Positions 18,074 to 40,371 are shown, counted from the first letter of the stretch. The stretch is DNA of 64,000 nt from Thermoguttaceae bacterium (GCA_031553595.1 JAVBLI010000016.1:61773-125772), one strand, 5' to 3'. The notes: generated by a model not told the origin, from the sequence alone. Numbers and translations are program-made.

Positions 18074-18326
18074 AGGAGCACTCCCTTACGACGCTGTCTG
18101 AAGTATAAAATGATAACCGACTAATATTAGTTTACACGCATTTCTTGTATCAGTAAAGAGAAATTTTCATATAATTTCATTATCGCACGGTTTGCTCAGC
18201 GGGTTATAACGGCTGGTGAGCCTGTGACACGTCCCCGTAACTTGCATTCCGGCGGGGGATCTGATAAAATAAATGAACTGGGAGTTTCCCGGGTACATTT
18301 TTTAGCGTTTTACTGGAGAAAATGAG

Positions 18327-21372: not shown

Positions 21373-22272
21373 ATGTCGGAAGAAGTGTGGACCATCGGGC
21401 GGCTGCTGAACTGGACGAAAGATTATCTGGCGAAACGCGGGGTGGCGTCGCCGCGGCTGGATGCGGAAGTGTTGCTGGCGGAAGCGGTGGGCTGTGCGCG
21501 AATCGGGCTTTACACGCGTTTCGAGGAAGTGCCGGCGGAGGATGTGCGGACGCGGTTTAAGGAAATGCTGCGGCGGCGGGCGGAGGGAGAGCCGGTGGCG
21601 TATCTGGTGGGGAAGAAGGAGTTTTACTCGGAGGAATTTGAGGTGACGTCGGCAGTGCTGATTCCCCGGCCGGAAACGGAGTTTTTGGTGGTGGGGCTTT
21701 TGGATGCGGCGAAAACGCTGTCGGCAGGGGCGGCGGGGGCATACCGGCTGTGTGATTTGGGCACGGGCAGCGGTATTCTTGCGATCATTGCCGCGATGAA
21801 CCTGAAAAATAGCACGGTGGACGCGGTGGATATTTCGCCGGAGGCGCTGGAGGTGGCGGCGAAGAACGTGCGGAAGCATGAGGCGAAAATCGGTGAGCGG
21901 GTGCGGCTTTTACAGGGGGATTTGTTCGGGCCGCTGGCGGGAAATGAGGGGGCGTATGATTTCGTGCTGACGAACCCCCCGTATGTGGCGGAAACGGAGA
22001 CGTGTCGCGAGTTGGCGGAGGACGTGTACCGGTATGAGCCGCGGGTGGCGCTGTTTGGCGGGCGTGAGGGGACGGAAATCATCGCGAGGATTCTGGAAGG
22101 CTCGCGGACGTTCCTGAAGCCGGGCGGGTTTTTGCTGCTGGAGCTGAGCCCCATGATTCACGCGCGGACGGTGGAGATGGTGGCCCAGACGCCGGGGCTG
22201 GAGTACGTGCGGACGATTTTTGATCTGGAGAAACGCGAGCGGATTCTGGTGGCGCGGCGGACGGTGATTTAG
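21373..22272 (+). CDS. prmC: release-factor glutamine N5-methyltransferase
   Basis: DLGTGSGILAI SAM-binding motif and TNPPYV catalytic motif, with a HemK-type N-terminal helical domain. Start set at MSEEVW. Confidence 0.85.
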   Translation: MSEEVWTIGRLLNWTKDYLAKRGVASPRLDAEVLLAEAVGCARIGLYTRFEEVPAEDVRTRFKEMLRRRAEGEPVAYLVGKKEFYSEEFEVTSAVLIPRPETEFLVVGLLDAAKTLSAGAAGAYRLCDLGTGSGILAIIAAMNLKNSTVDAVDISPEALEVAAKNVRKHEAKIGERVRLLQGDLFGPLAGNEGAYDFVLTNPPYVAETETCRELAEDVYRYEPRVALFGGREGTEIIARILEGSRTFLKPGGFLLLELSPMIHARTVEMVAQTPGLEYVRTIFDLEKRERILVARRTVI

Positions 22273-22301
22273 GGCAGATTCAGAATGAATGCAGCCGCCA
22301 G

Positions 22302-22417
22302 AACAGCAGCCGGGAATGAAGCGTAGTGGAATGACCGGATAAAATGGCCGAGCGTTTTCCCACTTCGATCCGGTCTCTGCGCGTCACTGCGTTCCGCTTC
22401 GCTCCCGGCTGCTGTTT
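22302..22417. repeat. long palindromic intergenic repeat, family E, copy 3
   Basis: gaacagcagccgggaatgaagcg...accggat aaaatggccgagcgttttcccacttcg atccggtctctgcgcgtcactgcgttccgcttcgctcccggctgctgttt. Confidence 0.75.
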
Positions 22418-22437
22418 CCGTGTAAAATTTACCGGTT

Positions 22438-22540
22438 TGTGACGCGTGGAAGTATTGCGCAGAGGCCGGATGGAAGTGGAAAAATTCTCGGCCATTTTAT
22501 CCGATCATTTCGCTGCGCTCCATTCTCGGCTGCTGTTTCT
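22438..22540. repeat. family E repeat, copy 4 (degenerate; centre inverted relative to copy 3)
   Basis: gtgacgcgtggaagtattgcgcagaggccggat ggaagtggaaaaattctcggccattttatcc gatcatttcgctgcgctccattctcggctgctgtttc. The centre is the reverse complement of the copy 3 centre. Confidence 0.6.
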
Positions 22541-22638
22541 TGTCTAAAACCGTGGCGGCGCGGGTATTCTTGTGCGGTAAAGTCTTCGCAGGTAGATGAA
22601 AATAGTGGGATTTGCTGGAGAATTCCGGTCTTTTTGAG

Positions 22639-22667
22639 TTGAAAAAAGTATTCGGGGATGTTAAAAT
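22639..22667 (+). promoter_or_regulatory. candidate promoter for the paralogue array
   Basis: TTGAAA (22639-22644), 17-nt spacer, TAAAAT (22662-22667), about 75 nt upstream of ATG 22741. Confidence 0.3.
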
Positions 22668-22740
22668 ATGTATGTATCTTTTCTTTATTGGTGATGTGAA
22701 AAGGGTGATGCCGGGTTTGAATAAAAATATGAGGTAAAAA

Positions 22741-23640
22741 ATGATGACGGAAAATGCGTCGCCGCCGGCGGAGAGTGTACGGGAGGCCATGCAGCGGGGG
22801 ATGCTGCTGGCGTTTGAGCGGCAGTTGGGAAACGGTTCGCGCGGCATGGTGTGGCTGATGGGCGGCGTGCTGCTGTGGTGCATCACGTGTGTGACGGTGC
22901 TGGTCAGTGCGTATGGAATAAACCTTTCGCTTTTTGAACAGGAGTCGGAGTTTCTTCTGGGGGCTTCCGGGGCGATTCTGGCGGGGCTGATGGGCGCGAG
23001 TTGGTGTGCGGAATTGCCGGGGCGGGTGGTGCCCAGCGGCGGGCTCTGGCTACGGGTGAGTTGGGGGCTGTTTTTCGTGGGGTGCCTGATGTTGGTGGCG
23101 CCGGGCTGGTTTCCGTTTACGGTGGGGCTGGTGCTGGTGACGGCGAGTTACGTCCTGTGGCTGCTTTACCTGCGGCGCGTGGCGTATGCGCTTGACGGCC
23201 AGGAGGCGCTGCGGCTGGTGCAGTGGTGGGCGATTTTGCTGGGGATTTTTGGGGCGGTGCTGCTGTGGCTGGCGATTTACGTAAAAACGCTGTGGCCGGA
23301 GTATGCGTTTCACTTCCGGATGGTGCCGGACACGCTGGCGGCGACGAAAGCGCTGACGTATTTCGAGTGGTTCTGTTTCGGTCTTTGGTGCGTGGCGGTG
23401 CTCGGCTCGGCTCAGATGATCATGCTCTGGCGGATGCGCGAATTGATTCGCCAGCGGATGAAAGACTGGGTGGAATCGGAAGGAAAGATGGAAATCGGCG
23501 GGCAGCGGAAAGAGACGCCGGGCGTGCTGCCGGTGCGGATAGTGATGGAAGTGGAGGAAGAGGATCTGACGCCGCGCGGGAAAGCGGGGAGTTTGAAGCG
23601 GCGGGATTTCATCAGCAGGAACCGCGGAAGGCGGAAATAA
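22741..23640 (+). CDS. multi-pass membrane protein, array member P0 (degenerate N-terminal box)
   Basis: ATG preceded by GAGG. MMTENASPPAESVREAM resembles the ENPYASPE.V.E box with PY missing. Several hydrophobic helices and a charged C-terminal tail. Confidence 0.75.
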   Translation: MMTENASPPAESVREAMQRGMLLAFERQLGNGSRGMVWLMGGVLLWCITCVTVLVSAYGINLSLFEQESEFLLGASGAILAGLMGASWCAELPGRVVPSGGLWLRVSWGLFFVGCLMLVAPGWFPFTVGLVLVTASYVLWLLYLRRVAYALDGQEALRLVQWWAILLGIFGAVLLWLAIYVKTLWPEYAFHFRMVPDTLAATKALTYFEWFCFGLWCVAVLGSAQMIMLWRMRELIRQRMKDWVESEGKMEIGGQRKETPGVLPVRIVMEVEEEDLTPRGKAGSLKRRDFISRNRGRRK

Positions 23641-23677
23641 TGCGTAATGCGAAATGCTTAATGCTTAATGAGAGGGA

Positions 23678-24424
23678 ATGATGGAAAATCCGTATGCGTC
23701 GCCGGAAAGGATGACAGAGGAGGTGCGGTGGTCGAGACAGGATCGGGCACTGGTGCTGACGTGGATCGGATTGGGCTGGATGCTCATGTCGGCGTCGTGC
23801 TCGCTTGGATTGTACGTCGCGGCCGGCGGGGCGTTTTTGGTGTTGCTGGTGTCCGTGGGGAAAGCATTTTTTGTGATTGAAATGATCGGGGCGTGTTCCG
23901 CTTATGGGCTGCTGGGGGCGGCAGGGCTGAGCGTGTTTCCGGGCGTGTGGCGGTGCTGGGGAGGCATGAGCGGCTTGAACGTGATCGGGAGGGATTTTTT
24001 GTCGGTCACATGGACGGCGTGGGCGGTGGGCGGACTGCTGATGTGCGGGACGATTGTGGGGGCGTTTTGGCTTGTCCCGCTGGGCGTTATCGCGCTGGCG
24101 GTGAGCTTTTGGCACTGGTATCGTTACCTTGAATTCGTCGCGTGGAAAAATCGCCAGCCGGGAATGATGCGACTGGCTTTTTTTATGTTCGTGGCGGCGG
24201 CGTGCTGGTGTGGCGTGGTGCTGATGATCATGCTGCTGGCTTTTTTGGACATAACGATGAACCGGATGTACGCGGAGCCGTTCATTCTGCCGCCCCTGGC
24301 GATTCTGGCAGTCTGTCTTCCGGCGGTGTATCAGCTGCTGGAAATTGTGGTGCTTCGCGGCCTGCGGCTGGGGATTCAGGGATTGCTGGAACTTCCGGAA
24401 GCGGAAAGGAATGTGGAATGGTAA
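23678..24424 (+). CDS. ENPYASPE-box multi-pass membrane protein, array member P1
   Basis: MMENPYASPERMTEEV, then about 6 hydrophobic helices. The loop SFWHWYRYLEFVAWKN is shared with P2 and P3. Acidic C-terminus ends in NVEW. Confidence 0.8.
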   Translation: MMENPYASPERMTEEVRWSRQDRALVLTWIGLGWMLMSASCSLGLYVAAGGAFLVLLVSVGKAFFVIEMIGACSAYGLLGAAGLSVFPGVWRCWGGMSGLNVIGRDFLSVTWTAWAVGGLLMCGTIVGAFWLVPLGVIALAVSFWHWYRYLEFVAWKNRQPGMMRLAFFMFVAAACWCGVVLMIMLLAFLDITMNRMYAEPFILPPLAILAVCLPAVYQLLEIVVLRGLRLGIQGLLELPEAERNVEW

Positions 24425-24448
24425 GCTGCGCGAGAGTGAGGGCCTGAG

Positions 24449-25225
24449 ATGAATGAGAATCCGTATGCGTCGCCGGAACGGGTGGAGGATCGGCAGGAAA
24501 ATCCCATGCTGGATATGATGCTGGGGAATTCTCGCCGGGATGAAATGATGGAGATGCTGCGTATCAGGCAGGGGCTGCGGCTGACATGGTGCAGGGGCGT
24601 GATGTGGCTGTTGGTGATGCTTTGTACGTTGCTGAATGCCGGCCTTGCAAAAATGAAAGTGGATGGAGATATCGTCCCGCTTCTCGCTTTAGGGAATACG
24701 TTGTTTTCGTTTTTGGGCGGTGTTCTGGCATTGTTCGCGCTGGCATATCTGTGGTGGGGGCTGGCGGAGGCGGAACCCGGGGCGCACTGGGATATGATCG
24801 TCAGTTGGTTGTGTGCGGTCAGCGGAACGCTATTGACGGTCGCTATGGTTTTCGTGGAGGTGGCGTTACTTGGACTGGTGGGTTTGTCGCTGCTGTGTAT
24901 CGGTTACTGGAAATGGTCGCGTTGTCTGGAATTCGTCGCGTGGAAAGTGAAACGCGGGGATTTGATGCAGCGTTCGTTGTGGGTAGGAGCCCTGGCGATC
25001 GGATGGTTCGGTATGGTGCTACTTGCCTTGTTGCTGTTGGTGTTCCTCTCCCGTTTTTCGGTTTCCGCGGACGGACTGGTGATGTTGGTGGAGGGGATGA
25101 TGCTTATGGCGGGCGTTCTCGGATGTGCTTATTTTGTTGCGGAGCTGACGCTGGTCTGGAAGTTGATCGGGCGGCTGGGCAGAATGCTGCGGGCGGGTGA
25201 CGGCATCGAGGAGGTGGACTGGTGA
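24449..25225 (+). CDS. ENPYASPE-box multi-pass membrane protein, array member P2
   Basis: MNENPYASPERVEDRQ. Has the GYWKWSRCLEFVAWKV loop. C-terminus ends in EEVDW. Confidence 0.8.
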   Translation: MNENPYASPERVEDRQENPMLDMMLGNSRRDEMMEMLRIRQGLRLTWCRGVMWLLVMLCTLLNAGLAKMKVDGDIVPLLALGNTLFSFLGGVLALFALAYLWWGLAEAEPGAHWDMIVSWLCAVSGTLLTVAMVFVEVALLGLVGLSLLCIGYWKWSRCLEFVAWKVKRGDLMQRSLWVGALAIGWFGMVLLALLLLVFLSRFSVSADGLVMLVEGMMLMAGVLGCAYFVAELTLVWKLIGRLGRMLRAGDGIEEVDW

Positions 25226-25941
25226 GGCGGGGTGCGGAAGAAAACGGGATGCGCGAGAATCCGTATGCGCCGCCCCAGCGGGTGGAGGAGGATGCGCGCG
25301 AGATGACGCCCGAGCAGCGGTTTGCGGCGGCGCGGGGGCTGGGGTGGATGTGGTGGAAGACGCTGTGGTGGGTGGTGGTGGAGGTGACGGTGGTGGCGTG
25401 GCTGACGTGGCCGTACCCGCTGACGGAATGGTGCATGTGGGTGCTGTGGATTCCGCTGGCGGTGACGAGTGTGGCGGGGACGTGGGCCGTGTGGAGGTGC
25501 CTGGATGGCGTGCATGTCCGGGGGCAGTGGTTCGTGTGGACGAGTTGGGCGTTCTGGTTCGGTGCACTTTGGTTTTTGATGGCGTGGAATCCTTATGCCG
25601 GGCAGTTCATGGCAGTGATGGCTGTGACGTGCATGGCGGTGAGCGTGGTGAAGTGGCTGGAATTCATGGCGCTGCTGGCGAAAGAGATGAAAAGTCGGCG
25701 GCATGTGTGGACGGCTTACGGACTGATGGCGCTTACGGCGGTGTGCCTGACTCTGACGTGTATGCTGGGGGAGTTCGGCGGCTGGCTGCTGGCGGCGATG
25801 ACCGTGGTGTGCTGGAGTGCGTACCTGACGCTGAATTTATGGCTGCTGGGCGGGCTTCGGCGCGTGCTGCTGGAGAATGTGGAAATGGAAATACAGGAGA
25901 AGGTGTGGTGGAAAATCCGTATGCGTCGCCGGAAAGGGTGA
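25222..25941 (+). CDS. ENPYASPE-box multi-pass membrane protein, array member P3
   Basis: GTG 25222 overlaps the P2 stop (GTGA); an alternative ATG at 25249 gives MRENPYAPPQRVEED. Has the VVKWLEFMALLAKEMK loop. The Arg-rich C-terminal tail is encoded inside the P4 box. Confidence 0.75.
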   Translation: MRRGAEENGMRENPYAPPQRVEEDAREMTPEQRFAAARGLGWMWWKTLWWVVVEVTVVAWLTWPYPLTEWCMWVLWIPLAVTSVAGTWAVWRCLDGVHVRGQWFVWTSWAFWFGALWFLMAWNPYAGQFMAVMAVTCMAVSVVKWLEFMALLAKEMKSRRHVWTAYGLMALTAVCLTLTCMLGEFGGWLLAAMTVVCWSAYLTLNLWLLGGLRRVLLENVEMEIQEKVWWKIRMRRRKG

Positions 25942-26642
25942 CGGAAGAGATGGAAATGCGTCATGCGGGGCTGTACGGCAGCGTGCGTATACGGGAATTG
26001 CAGCGGGCGCTGGCCGGGTTGGGGTGGACGCTGTACGCGGTGTTGTTGGGCGGTACGACGCTGACTTTTCTGTCGGTTTTCGAGTGGGATCCAGCCAGGT
26101 GGGATGCTCTGCTTCATTGGAGATGGTTCGGCGCGGTGTGGATAACGCTCATTTTGTGCATGGTGGGAACGGGGGGAATGTATCTGCTGGGTGCGGTTTT
26201 GTGCTCGTTGACGGGATGGACGCAGAGGTGGCGGGCCCCGTTGTTGGTACTTGGCGGATTGATTTTGTCCGCCACCGGCGAGACGTATCTGTTTCGTGAA
26301 CCGTTCCTCGAGTATGGCAGCCTGAACGGGTTGCAGGGGTTGGCGTGGATGACGGCGGGGGCGGCGCTGTGGTGCTGGTATTTGTGCTGGCTGACGCGAA
26401 CTTTGCATGCGGAGGCAGCGAAGCTTTGGGCGCATGCCGCGCTGGTGCTGTGCATATTGACGTTTTGCGCGGTACTGACGCAGTGGTTCCGCGATGACGG
26501 GTTTCTGCTGGAGTTCCTGGCGTGGGGGGGCGGCTGTTCCGTGACGGCTTATGTGATCCTGCATGCCATGACGCTGGTGATTTTGCGTCGGACGCTGCGC
26601 ATGCGGATTCGGCGGTTGAATGAGACGGGATACGAGGAATGA
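25905..26642 (+). CDS. ENPYASPE-box multi-pass membrane protein, array member P4
   Basis: Embedded in the ORF-track entry 25197..26642. GTG 25905 is preceded by AGGAGA (25895-25900). It reads (M)VENPYASPERVTEEMEM followed by hydrophobic helices. Overlaps P3 by 37 nt. Confidence 0.7.
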   Translation: MVENPYASPERVTEEMEMRHAGLYGSVRIRELQRALAGLGWTLYAVLLGGTTLTFLSVFEWDPARWDALLHWRWFGAVWITLILCMVGTGGMYLLGAVLCSLTGWTQRWRAPLLVLGGLILSATGETYLFREPFLEYGSLNGLQGLAWMTAGAALWCWYLCWLTRTLHAEAAKLWAHAALVLCILTFCAVLTQWFRDDGFLLEFLAWGGGCSVTAYVILHAMTLVILRRTLRMRIRRLNETGYEE

Positions 26643-27385
26643 GTGAAAACGGGATGCGTGAGAATCCGTATGTGTCGCCCCCGCAGGTGGTGGAGGATGA
26701 AACGTCAGTGCACGAGTACCTGCGGCGGATTCGCTGGGTGCGGTGGGGACTGGGCGTGTTGTGGTGGAGCGTGCTTTTGGCGGTGCTCTTTTACGCGGCG
26801 ATGTTCCTCGGCGAGGGGAATGACGGCGTGCCGACATGGGATTCGCAGTTGAAGGATTGGCTGCTGACGTTGTCGGTCATACCCGTGTTGGTGATTGCAG
26901 TGGCCGGGATCATCGCGTATGATATGTGCCCGAAGGAAGTGCTGTCGAAGCGCGGGCGGTGGATGGGCGGGACATTAGGCGGATGGTGGATTCCGTTGCA
27001 GTTTCTGGCGATATCGGCACATACGGAAAAGGGTTTCATCGTGATGCATCTGCTTTTCTGGGGAGGGTCGATTCTTTGGGGGCTTGGCATCCGGCAGTTG
27101 GCACGCGGATTGGAATGTCAGCGCGGCGTGGAGCAGGGCACGCGGCTTATGCGGTTGGCGATTCTTTTCGGCGTGGCCGTGGCGGCGACCATCGGGGTGG
27201 TGCGTGGGTTGGGATATCCGATTGAGTTCATTGCACACGGTGGTTATAACACAGCGGCGCTGGCGGTGATGCTGGTGCAGATGGCAGGGCTGTTGGTTTT
27301 CGGAGTGCTGCTGATGCGGGCGCTGAGTACACTGCGGCGGTGGATGCAGGTGGAAATTCTGGATAAATCGGATGAGGTGCGATGA
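26639..27385 (+). CDS. ENPYASPE-box multi-pass membrane protein, array member P5
   Basis: ATGA overlap with the P4 stop. MSENGMRENPYVSPPQVVEDE; the ENGMRENPY stretch is shared with P3. Confidence 0.8.
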   Translation: MSENGMRENPYVSPPQVVEDETSVHEYLRRIRWVRWGLGVLWWSVLLAVLFYAAMFLGEGNDGVPTWDSQLKDWLLTLSVIPVLVIAVAGIIAYDMCPKEVLSKRGRWMGGTLGGWWIPLQFLAISAHTEKGFIVMHLLFWGGSILWGLGIRQLARGLECQRGVEQGTRLMRLAILFGVAVAATIGVVRGLGYPIEFIAHGGYNTAALAVMLVQMAGLLVFGVLLMRALSTLRRWMQVEILDKSDEVR

Positions 27386-28191
27386 GCGAGACGCGTGAAA
27401 ATCCGTTTGCGTCGCCGGAAAGGGTGGCGGAGGATGGAAAGCCGCGGGTGGAGGGAAAACCGCTGACGGAAGCGGAGTTTGTGCGGGCGGTGCAGTGGAC
27501 GGCGCTGGGACTGCGGCGTTTGCGCGGGTGTGTGATCTGGTTGGCGGCGTGTGCTGTGCTGGTGCTGGTGGCAGGGGCGGCGAGTTGGCTGTCCGGAGCA
27601 TGGCGGGATTTTGTTGGTCTTGCGGTGTGGATGCCGTGGGTTTTAGCGCCGCCGGCGATTTTTCTGTTCCTGAAGGGCATGTACGGGTGCTCGCAGTGTC
27701 CGGCGGTGTTGGTGCCGAAAGCCAGTGACGAGATGCTGGGGTGCCTGATCCTGGCGGCGCTGGGGATTCCGATGATGCTTGTCGGGGCGGCGGTGCATTT
27801 TCATGTGATCATTTTTTTGATGGGTGCCGGGCTGTGTGCTGCGGGGCAGTTTTTGTTTACGCGCTTCGTCGTGCGGCTGGCTCAGCACACGCGGGATGAA
27901 CGGATTTTGGGATTGTCGCGTGCGCTGCAATTTGTCAGCCGGTTCATGCCGGTATTTTGCTGCCTGTTTATTCCGGTGCTGGGCGTGCAGACGGCATTGT
28001 TCAGCGGAGGTTTTGCGGCCGTGAAATGGAATTCGCTGGTGTATATGAACGTGACCATTTGCGCGACGATGGATGTGCTGATGTATGGCTGCATGAGCTT
28101 CGAATTTTTGAAACGGATGGCGGCGTGGCTGAAGACGCTGGCGGCGGATGACGCGGCGGTTATGCAGTGGATTTTAGACTCGGAACAGTAA
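27382..28191 (+). CDS. ENPYASPE-box multi-pass membrane protein, array member P6
   Basis: ATGA overlap with the P5 stop. MSETRENPFASPERVAEDGK. Multiple hydrophobic helices. Confidence 0.8.
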   Translation: MSETRENPFASPERVAEDGKPRVEGKPLTEAEFVRAVQWTALGLRRLRGCVIWLAACAVLVLVAGAASWLSGAWRDFVGLAVWMPWVLAPPAIFLFLKGMYGCSQCPAVLVPKASDEMLGCLILAALGIPMMLVGAAVHFHVIIFLMGAGLCAAGQFLFTRFVVRLAQHTRDERILGLSRALQFVSRFMPVFCCLFIPVLGVQTALFSGGFAAVKWNSLVYMNVTICATMDVLMYGCMSFEFLKRMAAWLKTLAADDAAVMQWILDSEQ

Positions 28192-28218
28192 CGGTTTTTG
28201 ATAAAACGGGAGGTTGAA

Positions 28219-28911
28219 ATGGATGTGGATATGCCGGTGAAGCGGGAAATGAGCGCGGAAGAACGGAAGTTTGACCGCGGGATGCGGATGGTGGTGCATG
28301 GGGTGACGTGCTGCTTTGCGGCCGCGTTCGTGATGCTGCTGGGGCCGATTCTGCTGTCGAATCTTGGGCTGAAAAATGAGGCGGCCGAGCGGGCGTGGCT
28401 GGGGCTGATTTTGACTGTGGGGGGGATGCACATGGTGGGGTGCGTGCTTTGCTGCCTGTGCCCGACTTCGGTCGTGCGGCACGGAAAAGGCGTGATTTTA
28501 ACCGGTCTGGGGATGATCCTGCTGGCCGGGGGAATCGCGTGGTGGTGTTCGCGGAATGAAGAATATCTGAAAGAGTATGAATCCGCGCGGATACTGATAA
28601 TGCTCATTCCTCTGCTGCTGTTCGCGGGAGTAACGGTGTGGATACTGTTTTTGTGGCAGCTTGCGAAACGGACGCTCAGCGGGGAAATGGCGATGTTCGC
28701 GATATCGCTGGCGGTGCTCTGCGGGGGGAGTGCCGTGCTGCTGCTGACGCCGTTGGCGATGATATTTTTTCTGTTGATGCCGTATAGTTTGGTGGCGCTG
28801 GTGCTGGAAATGTTCCTTTACATGGGCCTGCTGCTGGGGCTGCGGACGCGGATTTTGCAGCGGCTGGACCAGGGTTGGGAAGTGGAGGACGGAGAGGATT
28901 GGGTGAGCTGA
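28219..28911 (+). CDS. multi-pass membrane protein, array member P7 (lacks the N-terminal box)
   Basis: ATG 28219 is preceded by GGGAGG; the ORF track uses TTG 28198. It begins MDVDMPVKREMSAEERKF and then has hydrophobic helices. Same size class and same strand as its neighbours. Confidence 0.7.
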   Translation: MDVDMPVKREMSAEERKFDRGMRMVVHGVTCCFAAAFVMLLGPILLSNLGLKNEAAERAWLGLILTVGGMHMVGCVLCCLCPTSVVRHGKGVILTGLGMILLAGGIAWWCSRNEEYLKEYESARILIMLIPLLLFAGVTVWILFLWQLAKRTLSGEMAMFAISLAVLCGGSAVLLLTPLAMIFFLLMPYSLVALVLEMFLYMGLLLGLRTRILQRLDQGWEVEDGEDWVS

Positions 28912-28925
28912 ATGAGGCATCAGGC

Positions 28926-29648
28926 ATGAGGAATGCGGAATTGGAGCCGCGTGAGAATCCGTATCGGTCGCCGGAGGAGGCGGAATGTGGTGCTGGTGCG
29001 GCCCGCGGGGAGATGGATCCGCGTTGCGCTGCGTTTTTGCGAAAAGGGTTGGGATGGTTTTATGGCAGCACGCTGGTGGGATTTCTGGCGTTGGCGGCGT
29101 GTGTGTTTGAGAAGTTGTTCATTGGCGAGTCGTTCGTGCTGGCGGTCGGGTGGCCGGTGGTGGTGTTGATATGCTTCATGCAGGCGGCGGGGACGCTCAA
29201 CTGTTTGCGCGGCTCGTGGCGGCTGATACCTGAGGGGCCGTTTTGGGTTCTTGGCAGTTGGTTACTCTTTCCACTTCTGGTGCCTGTGTCGGTCGTACAC
29301 CCGACATTTGAGGCTGTGGTCGCCGCGGCGGTAGGAGTGTGGTTATGGCATGGGTATTTAATCCGGCTCGCACTGCGGTTGAGAAGCGGGGCGTGTGTGA
29401 CGGGAGTGGCGGTGATGATGCTGGCGTGGCTGGTGATGATATTGGCATGGGTGAGGTTCTGGCAGTTGGATGAAATGTTGAAGTCGCCGGATCCCCACGC
29501 ATGGGAGTTGACGGAGGTGATGTACGTCGGGTGGACATTGGCGGCGTCGTGCGGCGTGATGCTGGTGGTGTATATGGCGGTGCTGCTGCGGTTGCGGTAC
29601 CTGGCGTGGAGTGTGCAGGGTGAGAAAACGGAAATTCCGGGAGAATGA
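28926..29648 (+). CDS. ENPYASPE-box multi-pass membrane protein, array member P8
   Basis: MRNAELEPRENPYRSPEEAE. The box DNA is near-identical to that of P9 (gagaatccgtatcggtcgccggaggag). Confidence 0.75.
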   Translation: MRNAELEPRENPYRSPEEAECGAGAARGEMDPRCAAFLRKGLGWFYGSTLVGFLALAACVFEKLFIGESFVLAVGWPVVVLICFMQAAGTLNCLRGSWRLIPEGPFWVLGSWLLFPLLVPVSVVHPTFEAVVAAAVGVWLWHGYLIRLALRLRSGACVTGVAVMMLAWLVMILAWVRFWQLDEMLKSPDPHAWELTEVMYVGWTLAASCGVMLVVYMAVLLRLRYLAWSVQGEKTEIPGE

Positions 29649-29649
29649 A

Positions 29650-30321
29650 ATGACTGAGAATCCGTATCGGTCGCCGGAGGAGACGGAGGAAGGCGAGACG
29701 CCGGAGAGTGACGCGGCGTATTTGCGCGGGCTGGAGTCGCTACGTGCCGGAATCGGGTGGGTGTTGACCGGTGGGGCGGCGGCGGTGGTGATGATGCTGA
29801 TGTTTCCCGTGCCTGTCCTGCAGGTGTATCTGGAGCATTTCGGGGGAGTGATGGCGATGGTCGGGGCGGTGACGACGGCGCTGGTTGCGGTACAAGTTTA
29901 CGGAATGTGGCGGTGCATGCGATGCCCGGGGCGGATTGCCCGTAATGTGGACGCGCTGGTCGGGGCGAGCATGGGGCTGATGGTGGCGGCGTATTTTGCG
30001 GCGTGGACCTTGGTGTGGGGGAAGTCACTCGAAACCGTGATGTACGGGCTGGCGTTAGCGTGTCTGTTGCCGTGGTTGTGGTTTTTGATGCGCGTGGCGA
30101 GAGGATTGAAACGCCCGGAGTTGACGGTAATTGCGGCGATTGTCGCCGGGCTGTGGCTGGCCGTGCTGGTTTTGGCGCTGCTGGGTGAGCAGGAATTGTT
30201 GGTGATGGCAGGCGTCGGGTATGTGATTTTTTATCTCAGCCTGATGATGGCGTTGCGGACATGGTTGAATGAGGAGATCGGAAAGTGCATGAGAACGTTT
30301 ACGCTTCGCCGGCAGAGGTGA
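29650..30321 (+). CDS. ENPYASPE-box multi-pass membrane protein, array member P9
   Basis: ATG lies 1 nt after the P8 stop. MTENPYRSPEETEEGE. The Arg-rich C-terminal tail (RTFTLRRQR) is encoded inside the P10 box. Confidence 0.75.
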   Translation: MTENPYRSPEETEEGETPESDAAYLRGLESLRAGIGWVLTGGAAAVVMMLMFPVPVLQVYLEHFGGVMAMVGAVTTALVAVQVYGMWRCMRCPGRIARNVDALVGASMGLMVAAYFAAWTLVWGKSLETVMYGLALACLLPWLWFLMRVARGLKRPELTVIAAIVAGLWLAVLVLALLGEQELLVMAGVGYVIFYLSLMMALRTWLNEEIGKCMRTFTLRRQR

Positions 30322-30719
30322 CGGAAGAACACTTGCAGGATGCGGAGAAACGGAAACCGTCGTCGGTGCGGCGGCTTGCGATGATCGTGTTTCTGGTGCA
30401 TCTGGCGCCTGTGCTGTTGATTTGTGGGGCAATTGTGCATGGCTATTTGACCAAGGATCATACGGGTGAATTGCATTTTATGTGGATTTGGGGAGTGATC
30501 ATGGACTTTCCGCTTTCGCTGCTGCTCTTCTTTGTCTCTGGGGCGGGTATCGGTACGGCGCCTCTCGAGTGGATGGGTGTAGAGCATCGCTGGTGGCCAT
30601 TGCATGACGTGATTTGGCCGGGCGTGATTTTTCAGACGGTCGGGACGCTGAACTGGCTGGGGATTGTGCTCGTGGTGCGTGCGTTGAGGAAAAGAGGAAG
30701 GAATGGCATTGGAGAATAA
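30285..30719 (+). CDS. short box-bearing membrane protein, array member P10 (144 aa)
   Basis: GTG start preceded by GAGGAG. (M)HENVYASPAEVTEE. Only about 3-4 hydrophobic segments, and the body is unlike its neighbours. Overlaps P9 by 37 nt. Confidence 0.6.
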   Translation: MHENVYASPAEVTEEHLQDAEKRKPSSVRRLAMIVFLVHLAPVLLICGAIVHGYLTKDHTGELHFMWIWGVIMDFPLSLLLFFVSGAGIGTAPLEWMGVEHRWWPLHDVIWPGVIFQTVGTLNWLGIVLVVRALRKRGRNGIGE

Positions 30720-31431
30720 GTACGCGTCGCCGGAAGCGGTGGCGGAAGAGGGTGCGGAGAATTCGCGGCGGCGGTGGAATGAAGTGATCGCGCTGGCGGC
30801 GGGGATGTCGTTGGCGTTGGCAGGGTGTGTGCTGGTTGTTTGGCGATTTTTCATGCTGATGCAGTTTCGTTTGATGGGTGAATATCCGCTTTCCCAGGTG
30901 CTTTTCCTCATATCATTTTGTATGGCGGTTTACGGAACGCAGATGCTGGGGATGACGCTGTCGCTGGCGGGTGCGCGGCAGATACGGTTCGGGCGGGGGC
31001 TGATGTTGGCCGGGCTGGTGCCGTATGCGGTGTTTTGCGCGGCGTTTTGGTGGAATACGTCGGATCGCGTGCCGGAAATGTGGATTTTGCCGTGTGTCGG
31101 CATCGGATGTTTGGCGTGGCTCGGATTCCTGACACTGGTGGCGCATCGGGTGGGCAGCCGCTGGATGGTGGGCATGGCGTGTCTGACGCTGATGGCGTTT
31201 GCGTCCGCGTGGGCTGGCACGTCGGTGGTGTGGTATTTTTATTATAACATGCCGTGGGACGGCGGCCCCGGGTATTCGGAGTTGCTGAGTTGGCTGATTT
31301 TTTCCAGCACGTGGATTTCACCGGCGGTGGTGTTTTTGTTTAAGGCGTGCTTTGCAACCTACTTTGTTTTGCTGATTGGATTGACGTTTCGGCTGTGGCG
31401 GCTGGCACAAATTTTGAAGGAGGAGCCATGA
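30703..31431 (+). CDS. ENPYASPE-box multi-pass membrane protein, array member P11
   Basis: MALENKYASPEAVAEEGAE. Overlaps P10 by 17 nt. Multiple hydrophobic helices. Confidence 0.75.
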   Translation: MALENKYASPEAVAEEGAENSRRRWNEVIALAAGMSLALAGCVLVVWRFFMLMQFRLMGEYPLSQVLFLISFCMAVYGTQMLGMTLSLAGARQIRFGRGLMLAGLVPYAVFCAAFWWNTSDRVPEMWILPCVGIGCLAWLGFLTLVAHRVGSRWMVGMACLTLMAFASAWAGTSVVWYFYYNMPWDGGPGYSELLSWLIFSSTWISPAVVFLFKACFATYFVLLIGLTFRLWRLAQILKEEP

Positions 31432-32099
31432 GTGAGAATTATTACGCGTCGCCGGAGGTGGTGGAGCGTGTGGATACGGACGTGCTGCGGGAATACCGGT
31501 GGTCATTGATTTGGCTGGCCCGCGGGATGATGGGAATGATTTTGAGTTTCGTTCTCGGAGTCGGCATGGCTTGGTTGACGGAAGTATTCTGGTGGCGATA
31601 TTTTTTGCAGTATTACAATTGGTCGTGGGCACTTGGCTTCGGAATGTTCTGCGTGCTGCAGTTGCTCGGGGCCGTGATGTGCTGGATCGGGGCAAGCCGG
31701 CTGCGGTGGGACGCGAAATGGCTGATCCCGCTCAGCGGCGTGCTGTTCGTGCTGATGTTCGGTGTCGGATTTATTGAGGCGCAGGTGAACTCGCCGCCGC
31801 TGATTTCCGCCATGCTGGTTTTCGGGTTCAGTTGCTGGGCTTGGCAGGCGTTCCTGCTGTGGATGGCGTGGTGGATGGAAAGCCGGTGGCTGATGGTGAC
31901 GGCGGGGCTGGTGCTGCTGACGTTCAGCATCGCCGGCTTCGCAACAATGTATGTATTCCTGCAGCTCCGCGATTGCTGGCAGATGTGGCTGGCGATGATC
32001 TCCGGAGTCGGGTATTTCGGGCTTTACGCGATTTTGCTTATCGGAACATTGAAACGGCTGTGGACGCTGGTGGCCCGGTCGTTGGAAGGAGTGCAGTGA
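31428..32099 (+). CDS. ENPYASPE-box multi-pass membrane protein, array member P12
   Basis: ATGA overlap with P11. MSENYYASPEVVERVDTDVLREYRWSL. Colinear with P13 through to the C-terminus (LIGTLKRLWTLVARSLEGVQ). Confidence 0.8.
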   Translation: MSENYYASPEVVERVDTDVLREYRWSLIWLARGMMGMILSFVLGVGMAWLTEVFWWRYFLQYYNWSWALGFGMFCVLQLLGAVMCWIGASRLRWDAKWLIPLSGVLFVLMFGVGFIEAQVNSPPLISAMLVFGFSCWAWQAFLLWMAWWMESRWLMVTAGLVLLTFSIAGFATMYVFLQLRDCWQMWLAMISGVGYFGLYAILLIGTLKRLWTLVARSLEGVQ

Positions 32100-32794
32100 T
32101 GGAGAATCCGTATGTATCGCCGGAGGTGACGGAAATGGTGGAGACGGACGCGGTGGTGAAATACCGCCGGTCGCTGACCGCCATGGCCCAGGGAGTGATG
32201 TGTGTAATGCTGAGTTTCGTCGTTGCGATCACGTGCATGATCGTGGGAAATCTGGTTGAGATGTGGTTGCGTTTGGAGATCATTAACGGCGCGAATGTCG
32301 TCGGACTCTCGCTGTTTTGCGGCTTGCAATTTATCGGGGCGATGTATTGTTATTCCGCCGCGGATGTGTTTGCGGAAAACGGAAAGCTTCTGATTTTCTC
32401 CTGCGGCATATTATTCGTGTCGGCGATTCTGCTGCGGTATTTTACGGTTCATCCCCTTTCGTCGGACGTCTGGTCGTTCGTCGCGATGCTGCTGTTTGGT
32501 TGCAGTTGCTGGTGCTGGCAGGTGTTTCTGCTGCGGCTTGCGCGGCGGACGGAAAGTCGGTGGCTGACGTTGGCGGCGCGGCTGGTGCTGTTGACGTTCA
32601 CCATCGCGGGCTTTGCGACGATGTCTTTTTTTGCCATTGCTTCGCAGCCGGGATTTCCGCTGCCGGTAGGCGTGGCGCTGTTTTCCGGATTCGCGTATTT
32701 CGGGCTTTACGCGGTGTTGCTGATCGGATTGTGGAAACGCCTGTGGATGCTGGTCGTGCGGTCGCAGGAAGGAGTTGCGGATGTCGGAGAATAA
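32099..32794 (+). CDS. ENPYASPE-box multi-pass membrane protein, array member P13
   Basis: TGATG junction with P12. MENPYVSPEVTEMVETDAVVKYRRSL. C-terminus LIGLWKRLWMLVVRSQEGV. Confidence 0.8.
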   Translation: MENPYVSPEVTEMVETDAVVKYRRSLTAMAQGVMCVMLSFVVAITCMIVGNLVEMWLRLEIINGANVVGLSLFCGLQFIGAMYCYSAADVFAENGKLLIFSCGILFVSAILLRYFTVHPLSSDVWSFVAMLLFGCSCWCWQVFLLRLARRTESRWLTLAARLVLLTFTIAGFATMSFFAIASQPGFPLPVGVALFSGFAYFGLYAVLLIGLWKRLWMLVVRSQEGVADVGE

Positions 32795-33530
32795 ATTCGC
32801 GTCGCCGGCGGGGGTGCGGGAAGAAGTTTCGCAGGATGAAAAATGGCGACGGAACGCGAAATCGCTGCGGATCGCGGCGTGGGGACTGACGCTGGCGTCG
32901 CTGAGTATGGGGCTGATTGTGGCGCTCATGGCGATGTTTGTCGTGAGTGACATGATATGGCCATTGTCCATTGTGAATCAATTTTTAGCGAATGTTCGCG
33001 AGCTGATTCAATGGGCGATGACAGCATCCGCCATTTCCTCTGGCATGGGCGTGGTGATGTGCCTGGCCTGCGGACGCGAGACGGCGAGGTTTGGCCGGTG
33101 GCTGATTCCGCTGTGCGTGGTGTGCCTGGCGTGGCCGGGGATGGCGATCCTGGAGATCGACTTCGGTTTGGTCGAAATGCTGGGCCATTACGAGCATTTG
33201 TTAGCAATGACTTTTTTCATCGGCCTGGCCCTGTGGGGTGTCTTTCTCTGGCTGTTGGCTTGGACGATGAAAATTCCTCACGCGGCGATATGGATCGTGC
33301 TGACGGTTGTCGTTTGGGTTATCCTTACCGTATGGAGTTCGCCGCTGATGGATTCGAATCGGGATTTTGCGCGGATGCACCGTCTTTTTTACCGTGAAGT
33401 GATGGATAACGTGCTGCCGGTGGTCGGGCTGGCCACGTGTGTCACGGCCATGTGGACGTTGCGTTCCGCGATCATGCGGGGGCTGCGGATGGTGTGCGGA
33501 AAGAGTGGTGATGAAAGGGACGAAAAATGA
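32781..33530 (+). CDS. ENKFASP-box multi-pass membrane protein, array member P14
   Basis: ATG 32781 follows GGAG; the ORF track uses TTG 32775. MSENKFASPAGVREEVSQDEKWRRNAKSLRIAAWGL. Confidence 0.8.
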   Translation: MSENKFASPAGVREEVSQDEKWRRNAKSLRIAAWGLTLASLSMGLIVALMAMFVVSDMIWPLSIVNQFLANVRELIQWAMTASAISSGMGVVMCLACGRETARFGRWLIPLCVVCLAWPGMAILEIDFGLVEMLGHYEHLLAMTFFIGLALWGVFLWLLAWTMKIPHAAIWIVLTVVVWVILTVWSSPLMDSNRDFARMHRLFYREVMDNVLPVVGLATCVTAMWTLRSAIMRGLRMVCGKSGDERDEK

Positions 33531-34264
33531 TGGATGAAAATAAATTCGCGTCGCCGGCAGAGGTGAATGAGACGTTGGCGCCGGAGGAAACATGGCGGCG
33601 AAAGGCGGGGCAGTTGCGTTTCGCGGCGTGGGGGATGGTGCTGGTGAGTTGGGGATTCGCGCAGATGCTGATGGCCGTTAGTGTAAGCCTTGTGTCCCGG
33701 GAGTGGAAATGGAAATTACTGGATTTCCTCGTGGATTTCAACATGATCCGTATGCTGGCGGCAATCATCGGGGTAGGGATGTTCGTTCTGGGAATGGCGT
33801 TGTGCCTTGCCTGCGGGAAGAACGTAATCCGGCATGGCCGCTGGCTGATTCTGGCGGCGCTAGGATGTATCTGCGTGCCGCCGTTGTCGGATTTCTTTGT
33901 TTCCGCTTACTGGACTTATGAAAACGCGATCATCTTCGCCGGGTTCACGTTCTGGAGCGTCTTTCTCTGGCTCATGGCATGGGCGTTGAAAATCCCGCAC
34001 TGCCGGTTTTGGCTCGGATTGACGTTTCTGCTCTGGGCGACGGCAGTTTTCTGGAGTGTGATGTTAAACGCGGGGTTTTCTTTTTTTCGTGATTTTAACG
34101 ATTACCTTTTTCCACTTATATATTATCGTCTTGGCGTCGAGCAGTACACATATGTCGCTGGGTGTGTGACGTGTATCGTCGGGATGCTGATTTTGCGGGC
34201 CAGCATAGTGAAGCAGTTGCGGAAGATGCACGAGTTGGGCGGTGATGAGAGGAACGAAGAATGA
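33527..34264 (+). CDS. ENKFASP-box multi-pass membrane protein, array member P15
   Basis: ATGA overlap with P14. MMDENKFASPAEVNETLAPEETWRRKAGQLRFAAWGM. Confidence 0.8.
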   Translation: MMDENKFASPAEVNETLAPEETWRRKAGQLRFAAWGMVLVSWGFAQMLMAVSVSLVSREWKWKLLDFLVDFNMIRMLAAIIGVGMFVLGMALCLACGKNVIRHGRWLILAALGCICVPPLSDFFVSAYWTYENAIIFAGFTFWSVFLWLMAWALKIPHCRFWLGLTFLLWATAVFWSVMLNAGFSFFRDFNDYLFPLIYYRLGVEQYTYVAGCVTCIVGMLILRASIVKQLRKMHELGGDERNEE

Positions 34265-34962
34265 CGGGTGAGAATAAATTCGCATCGCCGGAAGAGGCGG
34301 ATGACGGCAGGTTGTCGGATAAAGAATGGAAACGAAACTCGCTGCCATTGCGGTTCGCGGCGTACGGGCTGATGTTCGTCAGTTGCGGTTTCGCACTGCT
34401 GGTGTTGGCGTTTGGAATTCGGATGCTGTGGATACGCCCCGTGACATATAGTCCGCTTAACACGGTAACGCTGATTGCGGAGCTTCTCGGCGTTGGGCTC
34501 TCCCTCACCGGCATGGCGTTGTGTATGGGCATGGACAAAGATGCGGCGAGACGTGGACGTTACCTGATCCCGGCAGCATTCGGGTGCTTCTTCGTGCCAG
34601 TGCTCATACGATTTCCCCTTGCATACTGGGCCTGGAGAGATCCGATCATTTTTTCGTGGTCTGTGCTCTGGAACGCGTTTCTCTGGCAGTTGATGCGGGC
34701 ATTGAAAACCCCCCAGGCACGGATTGGGCTTCGTCTCGCGTTTCTTTTTTCGTTGACGGCGATTTTCTGGAGTATCATGCTTGCTTTGAGAGTTCCCATG
34801 TTTTGTAATTACCAGGATGCGTTTGCCTATCTTGGATATTACCCCACGTGTGCTGACCGGTTTTTATTTGTTGTGGGGCACATTCCGTGTATTTTCGGGA
34901 TGTTGATACTGTGGGCCGGCGCGATGAAGCAGCTGCGGATGATGCGTGGAGAGATTTTATGA
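34261..34962 (+). CDS. ENKFASP-box multi-pass membrane protein, array member P16
   Basis: ATGA overlap with P15. MTGENKFASPEEADDGRLSDKEWKRNSLPLRFAAYGL. Confidence 0.8.
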   Translation: MTGENKFASPEEADDGRLSDKEWKRNSLPLRFAAYGLMFVSCGFALLVLAFGIRMLWIRPVTYSPLNTVTLIAELLGVGLSLTGMALCMGMDKDAARRGRYLIPAAFGCFFVPVLIRFPLAYWAWRDPIIFSWSVLWNAFLWQLMRALKTPQARIGLRLAFLFSLTAIFWSIMLALRVPMFCNYQDAFAYLGYYPTCADRFLFVVGHIPCIFGMLILWAGAMKQLRMMRGEIL

Positions 34963-35462
34963 TGGAGGAGGTGAAAATGGATGAAAATAAATACGCGTCG
35001 CCGGAAGCGGTGGATGATGGTGGATCGCAGGTTGATGTATGGAGACACAAATCGCGGCTGCGGATTATGGCGTACGGGCTGCTGGCGGCGGCAGTAGGTA
35101 TGGGGATGTACTTGGCGTTGTTGATTACCACCGTCGTGCAGATGACATTTTTTCAGGTCGCTCAAGCGATGTATGTTCCCCGTGTTAGTGGGCTTTTCGA
35201 GGTGGTCGGCTTCTTGGCAATCGGCTTGTTCGTACAGGGCATGTTGCTGTGCTTAGCCTGCGGGCTGGAGATCGCCGGATGGGCGAGGTGGTTGGTGCCT
35301 GCCAGCCTGGCATGTATGGTTTTCATTCCGCAGATGCCCGCACCGGGGTTGATTCTCTGGAATTTTTTTCTTTTGCGGGTGTCGCAGAGGATGGAGTTTG
35401 CACGTTCCGCGTCGTGCTTTTGGATTGCGTTTATCCCGTGGGGCATGCTGACTTTGCATTAA
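34959..35462 (+). CDS. ENKYASP-box membrane protein, array member P17 (short, last in array)
   Basis: ATGA overlap with P16. An alternative ATG at 34977, preceded by GGAGGAGG, gives MDENKYASPEAVDDGGSQVDVWRHKSRLRIMAYGL. Only about 167 aa. Confidence 0.65.
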   Translation: MMEEVKMDENKYASPEAVDDGGSQVDVWRHKSRLRIMAYGLLAAAVGMGMYLALLITTVVQMTFFQVAQAMYVPRVSGLFEVVGFLAIGLFVQGMLLCLACGLEIAGWARWLVPASLACMVFIPQMPAPGLILWNFFLLRVSQRMEFARSASCFWIAFIPWGMLTLH

Positions 35463-35518
35463 TCGCCGTTTTCAGAAAATTGCAGGCGCTGGACAAAACC
35501 AAAAAAAACTCCGGCCAC

Positions 35519-39872: not shown

Positions 39873-39927
39873 GGCGTGGGGATGGGGCGTGTGGATTGTG
39901 GATGGTGGACGGGGGATACAATATTTA

Positions 39928-39956
39928 ATTGTATAATGGATGGTGGAAAAAAGCAA
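39928..39956 (-). promoter_or_regulatory. candidate promoter for the ATPase-LRR-helicase operon
   Basis: On the minus strand: TTGCTT (39956-39951), 17-nt spacer, TACAAT (39933-39928), about 55 nt upstream of ATG 39872. Confidence 0.25.
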
Positions 39957-40371
39957 GATTGGACGGAGGCGGAGATGGGAAAGCGTGTCATGGTGTACGA
40001 ATAGATTTTTAAATTTTGAGTGCATTTCCCATTTCCCATTCCCCATTCACAAACCACAAACCCCTATCCACGCTCCGTACGCTATTCGTTCGCCCGGGTT
40101 TTGTCGGTGGTAGCGGCGGTGTAATCGCTATATTTTAAGATTTTTTCTGCAAAAAACCATTTTTTTTCTAAAAAAACCTGTTGTTTCTGCGCCACGGCCA
40201 ATAAAAAATAGTAAAATAGAATAAAGGTAATAAAACGCAGAATCGCTCCCCGCTGTTTTCAGCGCATGGGGTGAAATCCAGACGGACATGCATGGTGGCG
40301 TATGTCCGGAGATGCAAAAATGGTTTCTGTACGTTCTTTTCCATTCACATTTTATTAGGGAAGGTGAAATA

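Follow-up and report, generated by a model that had tools for sequence, protein, structure and literature searches.

Immunity islands, among them the orphan immunity arrays of contact-dependent inhibition (CDI), Rhs and type VI secretion system (T6SS) loci, the acquired interbacterial defence clusters of Bacteroidales and bacteriocin-immunity arrays of Abi/CPBP proteins, mix unrelated families and adjoin toxin genes, toxin fragments or mobile elements; their CPBP proteins carry EExxxR/FxxxH motifs. The Inc proteins of Chlamydia, an intracellular pathogen, are secreted by a type III system and are marked by a bilobed hydrophobic domain of two helices. NPY(A/Q)(A/P)P-like starts, often behind a GYF_2 domain, are a feature of the RDD family (PF06271) and of some further small membrane proteins of bacteria. 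Here we describe 18 paralogous genes for small membrane proteins, g01 to g18, standing head to tail at positions 22741-35462 of a 64,000-nucleotide stretch of DNA from Thermoguttaceae bacterium (GCA_031553595.1 JAVBLI010000016.1:61773-125772), which we call the window and number from its first letter. As a genomic pattern, a tandem array of paralogues is familiar; the novelty lies in the protein family and its predicted fold.

The listing of open reading frames (ORFs) gives an unbroken series of 18 consecutive ORFs on the + strand, and re-examination of the start codons refined these to 18 genes of 144-299 aa, most of them full length (16/18, 223-299 aa) and none interrupted by an internal stop codon (0/18). 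The head-to-tail array described in an earlier first-pass annotation of this DNA is thereby confirmed. In the boxed genes an ATG or GTG codon lies 1-5 codons (mostly 2-3) upstream of the Glu-Asn pair that opens a short conserved box, or nine codons upstream in g09; because such a codon sits just 5' of each box, two longer ORFs of 481 and 320 aa are over-extensions. Most starts are preceded, 5-12 nt upstream, by a purine-rich stretch resembling a Shine-Dalgarno sequence. The junctions comprise five ATGA-type overlaps of 4 nt, one TGATG, gaps of 1-37 nt and overlaps of 14-37 nt, which is the coupling-type arrangement noted earlier. The box itself, EN[PKYV][YF]x[SP]P followed by acidic residues, is found in 16/18 genes at residues 2-11 (10-16 in g09), so that genes typically begin M-x(1-2)-E-N-[PKYV]-[YF]-x-[SP]-P, with nine residues ahead of the box in g09. 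The box of g01 is degenerate (ENASPPAE) and g08 is without one. When all six frames of the 64-kb window were scanned with a relaxed pattern, the box was recovered at precisely those 16 gene starts, the number first reported, with only two unrelated matches elsewhere.

The coding strand of the array is rich in G and T (GC skew +0.25 to +0.37, AT skew -0.16 to -0.31). Within a scan of positions 22000-36000 this strong skew was limited to the array, where many antisense and out-of-frame shadow ORFs occur; the long antisense ORFs rich in Pro, His and Arg are shadows arising from the G/T bias. The codons of the box (for example 23684-23710) are also distinctive across g01-g18: Asn is AAT in 16/17 cases (background 52%) and Ser is TCG in 16/16 (TCG makes up 41% of all Ser codons and ~66% of TCN). 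Synonymous sites of the box are thus more uniform than codon usage predicts, while synonymous divergence (dS) elsewhere is saturated. Selection at the mRNA level near the start sites, or gene conversion of 5' ends, is a possible cause.

Relationships among the 18 copies range from evident to very remote. An all-versus-all BLAST comparison resolved two young subgroups, g13/g14 (45% identity) and g15/g16/g17(/g18), and weak similarity within g02/g03 and g04/g06, with the remaining copies in the twilight zone. Profiles built from 17 members always found the 18th (18/18, E 2e-41 to 5e-5, computed for a database size of 1e6), and 15/18 were still detected when the first 25 residues were removed. 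The bodies of g06, g07 and g11 are too diverged for this, and these three are assigned to the family by their box, architecture and place in the array. The earlier impression that the bodies have diverged more than the box holds. Features common to the aligned copies are a Gly in the first transmembrane helix (TM1), a GxxxC, often CxxCP, that closes TM2, a C-terminal L-R and, behind TM4, W-x-x-[FY]-L-x-x-[LV]-A with basic residues after it. Within the g13-g17 subgroups the five closest pairs have a ratio of nonsynonymous to synonymous divergence (dN/dS) of 0.4-0.6, and the ratio is near 0.8-1 for distant pairs, in which dS is saturated. A test for positive selection by membrane side found omega >1 nowhere, with dS saturated and the outer regions too poorly aligned to be informative.

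One rival reading is that the array has one functional gene and redundant copies drifting toward decay, or that the ORFs are compositional artefacts. The truncation of g11 (144 aa) and g18 (161 aa), which are truncated or divergent, the failure of profiles to detect the bodies of g06, g07 and g11, and dN/dS values that approach 0.8-1 in distant, saturated pairs all point this way. We nevertheless regard neutral decay as highly improbable. Full length is kept in 16/18 copies and stop codons interrupt 0/18, despite a dS of ~1 that indicates long persistence; the box and key residues are kept; dN/dS is 0.4-0.6 in the closest pairs; orthologues of single copies are kept elsewhere at 37-55% identity; identical proteins have been called independently in public assemblies; and the structure predictions are confident.

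Nothing in the curated resources searched matches these proteins. Pfam searches with 10 members at E<=1 gave sub-threshold noise only, with RDD and CPBP/Abi (PF02517) matches absent, and NCBIfam searches with all 18 members gave nothing under E 0.025. Four members scanned with PADLOC matched 0 defence families, 0/18 members matched PHROGs, and PDB sequences compared with the family profile yielded noise only. Foldseek searches of the PDB with models of g02 and g16 had best E values of 0.16 and 0.12 and whole-model TM-scores (TMq) of at most ~0.42, and the best E against BFVD was 0.23; structural matches to 7TM proteins, rhodopsins, ABC proteins and designed helical bundles were set aside as noise (TM-score 0.2-0.45, E>0.1). 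Scans of IMG/VR viral contigs with two alignments confirmed nothing, a tblastn search of PLSDB plasmids gave no match, and Rfam gave none on the whole window. Neither family alignment has conserved Glu-Glu or His columns that could correspond to the EExxxR/FxxxH of CPBP proteases. A scan of GTDB genomes (596 Gb) with ENPYASPE returned 29 pattern matches, by rough estimate about the chance number for that volume, of which 0 were confirmed; the source genome is apparently not among the representatives. The motif strings and sample accessions were not mentioned in any paper found. The first-pass annotation did not recognise the family, and that judgement stands against Pfam, NCBIfam, PADLOC, PHROGs, PDB and BFVD. 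Judged from sequence and predicted structure, the protein family and its fold are new, lying outside every curated family and solved structure searched.

The array proteins do have uncurated relatives. They came to light when 1.84 billion representative proteins were searched exhaustively with a profile: 326 matched at E<=1e-3, 67 of them at <=1e-10. A word-indexed search found few because hydrophobic words swamp the index: a g02 query returned only itself, and a 117-sequence alignment returned four proteins. Besides the window's own, nearly all family proteins are 215-270 aa long, with MNENPYASPEE-like starts in close relatives and MSxxNPYAAPQ-like starts in distant ones; the distant main branch carries the motifs NPYASP, GLxLVYYGI, GPxFCLAVPxESGAKGLI, FVLFLRRLAxFIGRxDLAxRA and FVMYANLVNxLRKAI. 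Where organisms are named they are planctomycetes (Rubripirellula, Thermoguttaceae, Posidoniimonas corsicana (KOR34_28400) and Fuerstiella) and the product is a 'hypothetical protein', and the family appears restricted to Planctomycetia. This unnamed family, with non-self homologues down to a profile E of 1e-27 and covered by no Pfam or NCBIfam model, resembles the array proteins in length and shares with them an NPYxxP box ahead of TM1, a Gly within that helix, a GxxxC that closes TM2, an F/W-L-x-x-L-A-basic motif and a C-terminal Y..L..LRK. The array clade differs in having lost the PxE(S/T)GAKG loop motif and in its frequent second Cys (CxxCP). By body motifs and a predicted six-helix N-in topology the array fits the Planctomycetia NPY-box family, with g11 and g18 as partial fits.

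The most marked difference is in copy number. The wider family is single-copy in 12/12 fetched metagenome loci, all of the main branch, whereas the window has 18 tandem copies. The three longest of these loci have unrelated neighbours, and another homologue, P0057, is likewise single-copy, between endonuclease III and Fmt. Neighbours of the sampled single-copy loci are unrelated housekeeping genes, and no conserved neighbour was found among them; they include genes for a methyl-accepting chemotaxis protein (MCP), RecG, endonuclease III, Fmt, a phosphoribosyltransferase of TrpD type, an RNase II/R-type protein with an RNB domain and a channel protein with a TrkA domain. A single-copy gene in a housekeeping setting is therefore the usual state in the sampled loci. 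On the distribution of the family, which the first-pass annotation had left to a wider search, the outcome is twofold: it is wider than this genome (326 proteins), but at the sampled loci of the wider family the copies are single and in a housekeeping setting.

We then modelled g02 and g16 with AlphaFold2 using the 117-sequence family alignment. Both are predicted to form all-helical bundles, with confident mean predicted local distance difference test (pLDDT) scores of 89.7 and 84.5. Each paralogue has 6-20 Lys and Arg residues in the segments assigned to the cytoplasm and 0-3 in the periplasmic ones, and these counts combined with the helices support a six-helix topology with both termini inside. 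Members of ~230-260 aa are thus predicted to be N-in/C-in proteins of six helices with an NPYxSP box 20-35 residues before TM1. Conservation follows the same axis. In the 117-sequence alignment, column conservation is 0.31-0.37 in cytoplasmic halves and loops and 0.11-0.18 in periplasmic ones; among the 18 paralogues the values are 0.40-0.42 and 0.25-0.29. On the predicted inner side lie the box, the Cys motif of TM2 and the motifs that follow TM4 and end the protein. Across the 117 sequences N, P, G, G and C are near-invariant, the N and P of the box being at least 90% conserved. The proteins would accordingly combine a conserved inner face with a variable outer half of the bundle. The first ~19 residues are non-helical, yet they are modelled at pLDDT 78-90, unusually high for a free tail.

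A compact six-helix bundle with a confident model is also what might be expected of subunits of a transporter, channel or membrane scaffold, forming homo- or hetero-oligomers, with the expansion supplying alternative subunits. Coupling-type junctions would favour stoichiometric co-production, and the invariant Gly/Cys pair of TM2 could line an interface. This explanation seems to us quite unlikely, given that neither Pfam, the PDB sequence profile nor Foldseek against the PDB showed sequence or fold similarity to a transporter or channel, that conserved polar or charged intramembrane residues were not seen in the alignments, and that the sampled loci of the wider family are single-copy.

A few distant homologues carry additional N-terminal domains, which must be cytoplasmic, ahead of the family body, and Pfam searches on distant homologues matched only these fused Pkinase, GYF_2 and zinc-ribbon domains. 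In P0116 (contig L105, 322-2714) a Hanks-type Ser/Thr kinase (Pkinase, 2e-36) takes the place of the box, ahead of a body that belongs to the array-clade type (FCCLCPESVVKRR; 96 bits); array-clade relatives occur in the same sample. On that contig an 11-nt gap 5' of P0116 separates it from a 233-aa protein with an N-terminal planctomycete-type zinc ribbon. P0111 and P0120 have GYF_2 domains before the family body, and P0072, P0126, P0142 and P0220 have zinc ribbons there. Homologues with a GYF_2 domain or zinc ribbon retain the NPY box as an internal element, ~25-35 residues before TM1. Because it is internal in these homologues, the box is probably part of the domain and not an N-terminal sorting or processing signal. 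The first-pass annotation had proposed that the N-terminal peptide might be a cytoplasmic linear motif; the cytoplasmic side is indeed predicted, but the internal position and the pLDDT of 78-90 speak against a free N-terminal signal. A dedicated reader of the NPY motif is conceivable. Similar peptides occur in proteins outside the family: several NPY(A)(x)P peptides lie in a proline-rich linker of one non-family protein (L070, ~7869-8025, - strand), and one lies near the start of another small membrane protein (L075, ~19209, - strand). The NPY motif may be a general short motif of planctomycetes.

How the array arose can be approached from its genomic locus. Rho of the window is 84% identical to Rho of the metagenome-assembled genome (MAG) Planctomycetia bacterium S1R_St_60 (L004), the closest genome, and its identity to the Rho proteins of MAGs from Thermoguttaceae and Pirellulales, some of them of rumen origin, is 70-80%; the host is a gut-type planctomycete. 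L004 has the synteny of the window: Rho, PrmC and one family member are followed by UvrD in convergent orientation, an AAA ATPase and then a protein with a YTV domain. Its family member, of the same subtype as P0057, is 251 aa long with a degenerate WPENNAFSVAS box, and a sensitive scan of the 1.1-kb spacer found no relics of additional copies. That AT-rich spacer contains three direct repeats of ~115 nt (12540-13361), each with a TATAAT-like end; we considered these promoter-like repeats as a counterpart of the region upstream of the array and rejected the idea, as the two are not alignable.

Arrays of the family are found in other organisms. Contigs from at least five other sequencing runs, short in that most related contigs span only 1-4 kb, are packed with consecutive family members: four copies in L002 and at least three in L102 (SRR8655113), five in L086 (SRR8925724), two in L087 and three in L003. 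In L084 (ERR12071767) PrmC is followed by two family genes and then by a g01 orthologue at 55% identity, and in L102 a g05 orthologue (P0020) precedes a g06-like gene, so that local order is partly kept. Other organisms thus have arrays, in L084 at the PrmC-adjacent locus. Eight or nine copies (g01, g02, g04, g05, g08, g09, g10 and, marginally, g13/g14) have an external best match, at 37-55% identity, that is closer to them than their paralogues in the window, at 25-30%, whereas g15-g18 are closest to each other and not to external proteins. Since several copies have clearer orthologues elsewhere than paralogues in the window, the array is old and has evolved by birth and death. We conclude with high confidence that it is a lineage-specific tandem expansion of one inner-membrane protein family, old and still active, at the core locus Rho-PrmC-[array]-UvrD. 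It is a mix of conserved 'anchor' members, fast evolvers, recent 3' duplications and a couple of decaying copies, apparently maintained under selection.

Copy number that differs this much between the two closest genomes (1 versus 18) invites comparison with an immunity or exclusion arsenal, in which each copy would counter a different membrane-acting toxin (a bacteriocin or a polymorphic-toxin domain) or stop a different phage at the inner membrane, in an arms race within a dense gut or rumen community. The tandem arrangement of small polytopic proteins, their fast divergence, the variable part on the outer side, and the arrays in several metagenomes, where most members are without a recognisable one-to-one counterpart, would all suit such a role. 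So would the two genes adjoining the array on the - strand. A UvrD-type helicase (35519-37759) matches GajB models (1e-109), as any UvrD might, and an AAA ATPase (38514-40046) has a full-length match to the Septu PtuA model (E 5e-131). This pair could be either a defence module or a housekeeping UvrD with its partner. Its equivalents in L004, at 14972-17266 (-) and 17292-18632 (-), stand equally beside a single copy.

Other evidence tells against an arsenal, which we think unlikely. Our neighbourhood scan covered the large ORFs and part of the small ones, and the large ORFs of the 64-kb window are core housekeeping or regulatory genes, among which no toxin, Rhs/CDI, bacteriocin, secretion, phage or other mobile genes were found. 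The first-pass annotation had made the same point about neighbours, and it holds for the large ORFs scanned but has to be qualified by the PtuA-like ATPase and UvrD-type helicase directly downstream. The copies abut, leaving no room for toxin fragments between them; PADLOC and PHROGs gave no matches, and the family is absent from IMG/VR and PLSDB. Furthermore, several copies have orthologues elsewhere at 37-55% identity, the sampled loci of the wider family are single-copy among unrelated housekeeping genes, and a strictly conserved cytoplasmic face together with kinase and GYF_2 fusions is unexpected for immunity proteins. The presence of one copy in L004 and in the sampled loci, an outcome that the first-pass annotation had itself named as a refuting one, weakens the analogy with diversified arsenals that was drawn when the array was first noticed, although an 18-fold expansion is still odd.

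As a whole, the data are best explained by birth-and-death expansion combined with a sensor/adaptor repertoire, an explanation to which we give somewhat better than even credence. In this model the conserved parts on the inner side (the NPY box, the TM1 Gly, GxxxC(xxCP), the post-TM4 motif and the C-terminal Y..L...LR) would form one common surface, while the periplasmic loops and the bundle's outer half have diverged freely. Each copy would have a specificity of its own, directed outward or within the membrane, and would couple to cytoplasmic machinery common to all, a coupling that would be hard-wired in the distant homologues with a kinase, GYF_2 domain or zinc ribbon fused ahead of the body. 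Taken by itself, the claim that the copies are alternative membrane sensor or adaptor modules with one cytoplasmic interface is tentative, and we would call it possible rather than probable. More doubtful still is its most specific form, a multigene membrane-receptor repertoire of a new six-helix fold, whose outward half would diversify through tandem birth and death and whose conserved cytoplasmic face, with the NPY 'latch' in it, would be read by a common signalling partner, fused as a kinase or GYF_2 domain in some homologues.

Several observations weigh against the sensor/adaptor model. The function is read from architecture and a handful of fusions, the sole kinase fusion being on one 2.8-kb metagenome contig. 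Conservation inside with variability outside could also be a property of complex subunits or of proteins for immunity or exclusion, and a search for a conserved cytoplasmic partner gene beside family members found none. That the box may dock on the conserved face is suggested by its pLDDT values. Within the array, the bodies of g06 and g07 fall below profile detection, leaving box, architecture and position as the marks of their membership, g11 and g18 look truncated, and because dS between paralogues is saturated (0.8-1.3), selection is not measurable for most copies.

The individual copies differ in how well they are conserved. The first, g01 (22741..23640, + strand like all that follow; 299 aa), has a family body behind its degenerate box (leave-one-out E 2.4e-10), and its 55% identical orthologue is P0045. 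It ends in a C-terminal extension of ~70 charged residues (…DWVESEGKMEIGGQRKETPGVLPVR…RRK) that is kept in P0045, from another sample. Next come g02 (23678..24424; 248 aa; MMENPYASPER), modelled with a predicted TM-score (pTM) of 0.86 and recorded as an identical protein in an NCBI genome, and g03 (24449..25225; 258 aa; MNENPYASPER). The gene g04 (25249..25941; 230 aa; MRENPYAPPQR), with an alternative GTG start at 25222, is 45% identical to the external protein P0028 and overlaps by 37 nt with g05 (25905..26642; 245 aa), which starts at GTG with (M)VENPYASPER and is 43% identical to P0020. In g06 (26654..27385; 243 aa; MRENPYVSPPQ; alternative ATG at 26639) the body alone is missed by the leave-one-out profile, and in g07 (27382..28191; 269 aa; MSETRENPFASPER), joined to g06 by an ATGA overlap, it scores weakly. 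The boxless g08 (28198..28911; 237 aa) has a complete family body, with LCCLCP and W..FLWQLAKR (leave-one-out E 2.3e-9), and a 47.5% identical orthologue, P0048, in the array on L086. It is followed by g09 (28926..29648; 240 aa; MRNAELEPRENPYRSPEE; 41.5% identical to the external P0029). By identity to external proteins, the members most conserved from one organism to another are g01 (55%), g13 (49%) and g08 (47.5%), and two of these, g01 and g08, are the copies that lack a canonical box.

In the second half, g10 (29650..30321; 223 aa; MTENPYRSPEE) is 37% identical to the external P0022, which lies in the array on L002. The gene g11 (30285..30719; 144 aa), starting at GTG with (M)HENVYASPAE, has ~3 hydrophobic segments and the weakest leave-one-out score, 28.5 bits over the N-terminal half only. 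After g12 (30703..31431; 242 aa; MALENKYASPEA) come g13 (31428..32099; 223 aa; MSENYYASPEV), 49% identical to the external P0018, and its close paralogue g14 (32099..32794; 231 aa; MENPYVSPEV), linked by the TGATG junction. The young subgroup at the 3' end consists of g15 (32781..33530; 249 aa; MSENKFASPAG), g16 (33527..34264; 245 aa; MMDENKFASPAE; pTM 0.81), g17 (34261..34962; 233 aa; MTGENKFASPEE; dN/dS 0.40 against g16) and g18 (34977..35462; 161 aa; MDENKYASPEA). This last is a truncated terminal copy without the last two helices, its leave-one-out match covering profile positions 1-174/242, and it is convergent with UvrD.

Upstream, a candidate promoter for the array (22639..22667, + strand) lies ~70 nt 5' of g01. 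With TTGAAA-17-TAAAAT, an extended TG and 10/12 matches it is the best sigma-70-like match of the region, as a match to consensus only. Between the PrmC stop and the array there is an inverted repeat (22302..22537) with 81-nt arms (86% complementary) and a 74-nt spacer, for which RNA folding gives -156.6 kcal/mol (z-score -15). The 22-nt core of the repeat is found again in intergenic DNA at 11603-11624 (+) and 17368-17389 (-), and because of this the repeat looks like a dispersed element of the repetitive extragenic palindromic (REP) or miniature inverted-repeat transposable element (MITE) kind. It may act as a terminator or insulator before the promoter-like site. Phase variation through an invertible promoter was considered and rejected: the only inverted repeat sits upstream of the promoter-like site and belongs to the dispersed element, and we read it as a hairpin of REP-like type. 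Downstream, a 460-aa ORF with leucine-rich-repeat matches (37765-39147, -) shares ~630 nt with the 3' end region of the ORF for the PtuA-like ATPase. One or other gene model must be shorter; in L004 the ATPase and UvrD have no gene between them. Elsewhere in the window, positions 13729-17247 (+) encode a 1172-aa protein with RTX calcium-binding repeats and a beta-lactamase-fold (serine hydrolase) domain.

The cell biology of Planctomycetia is unusual and poorly understood, and this family of membrane proteins, well defined and with a fold predicted confidently here, lies beyond the curated databases and solved structures searched. The contrast of one copy with 18 at an otherwise identical housekeeping locus provides a natural experiment on how bacterial multigene families grow. 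The predicted pattern of conserved inside and variable outside supplies a concrete hypothesis, for which the kinase and GYF_2 fusions are candidate partners. If the array is a sensor repertoire, the NPY..P peptide could offer a tractable example of how short motifs work in the membrane proteins of bacteria; if it is a receptor repertoire, gut planctomycetes would gain combinatorial sensing of their surroundings; and if it is an arsenal, it would be a new immunity family without a known toxin.

Among known systems, immunity islands share with the array the head-to-tail arrangement of small, fast-diverging, often membrane, proteins and a copy number that varies between relatives. The array differs from them in consisting of one family at a core locus, with no toxin or mobile gene found there, and in its conserved cytoplasmic face. 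Inc clusters, also from the Planctomycetes-Verrucomicrobia-Chlamydiae (PVC) superphylum, are likewise paralogous small membrane proteins with N-terminal signals; the array proteins have six helices instead, and type III secretion genes were not noted among the scanned ORFs of the window. RDD-type proteins resemble the family in the NPY..P peptide before the first helix and in the co-occurrence of GYF_2 and zinc-ribbon domains, but the membrane body is different and no RDD Pfam match appeared at E<=1. Receptor repertoires, such as bacterial chemoreceptors and the chemoreceptor arrays of eukaryotes, are similar by analogy in pairing a conserved cytoplasmic side with a diversified sensing side and in evolving by birth and death, and the kinase-fused homologue is a further parallel. 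There is no homology to them, however: MCP, HAMP and histidine-kinase domains are absent, and the periplasmic loops are short, with no ligand-binding ectodomain. At best, then, the array works like a receptor repertoire or an immunity island while being a member of neither.

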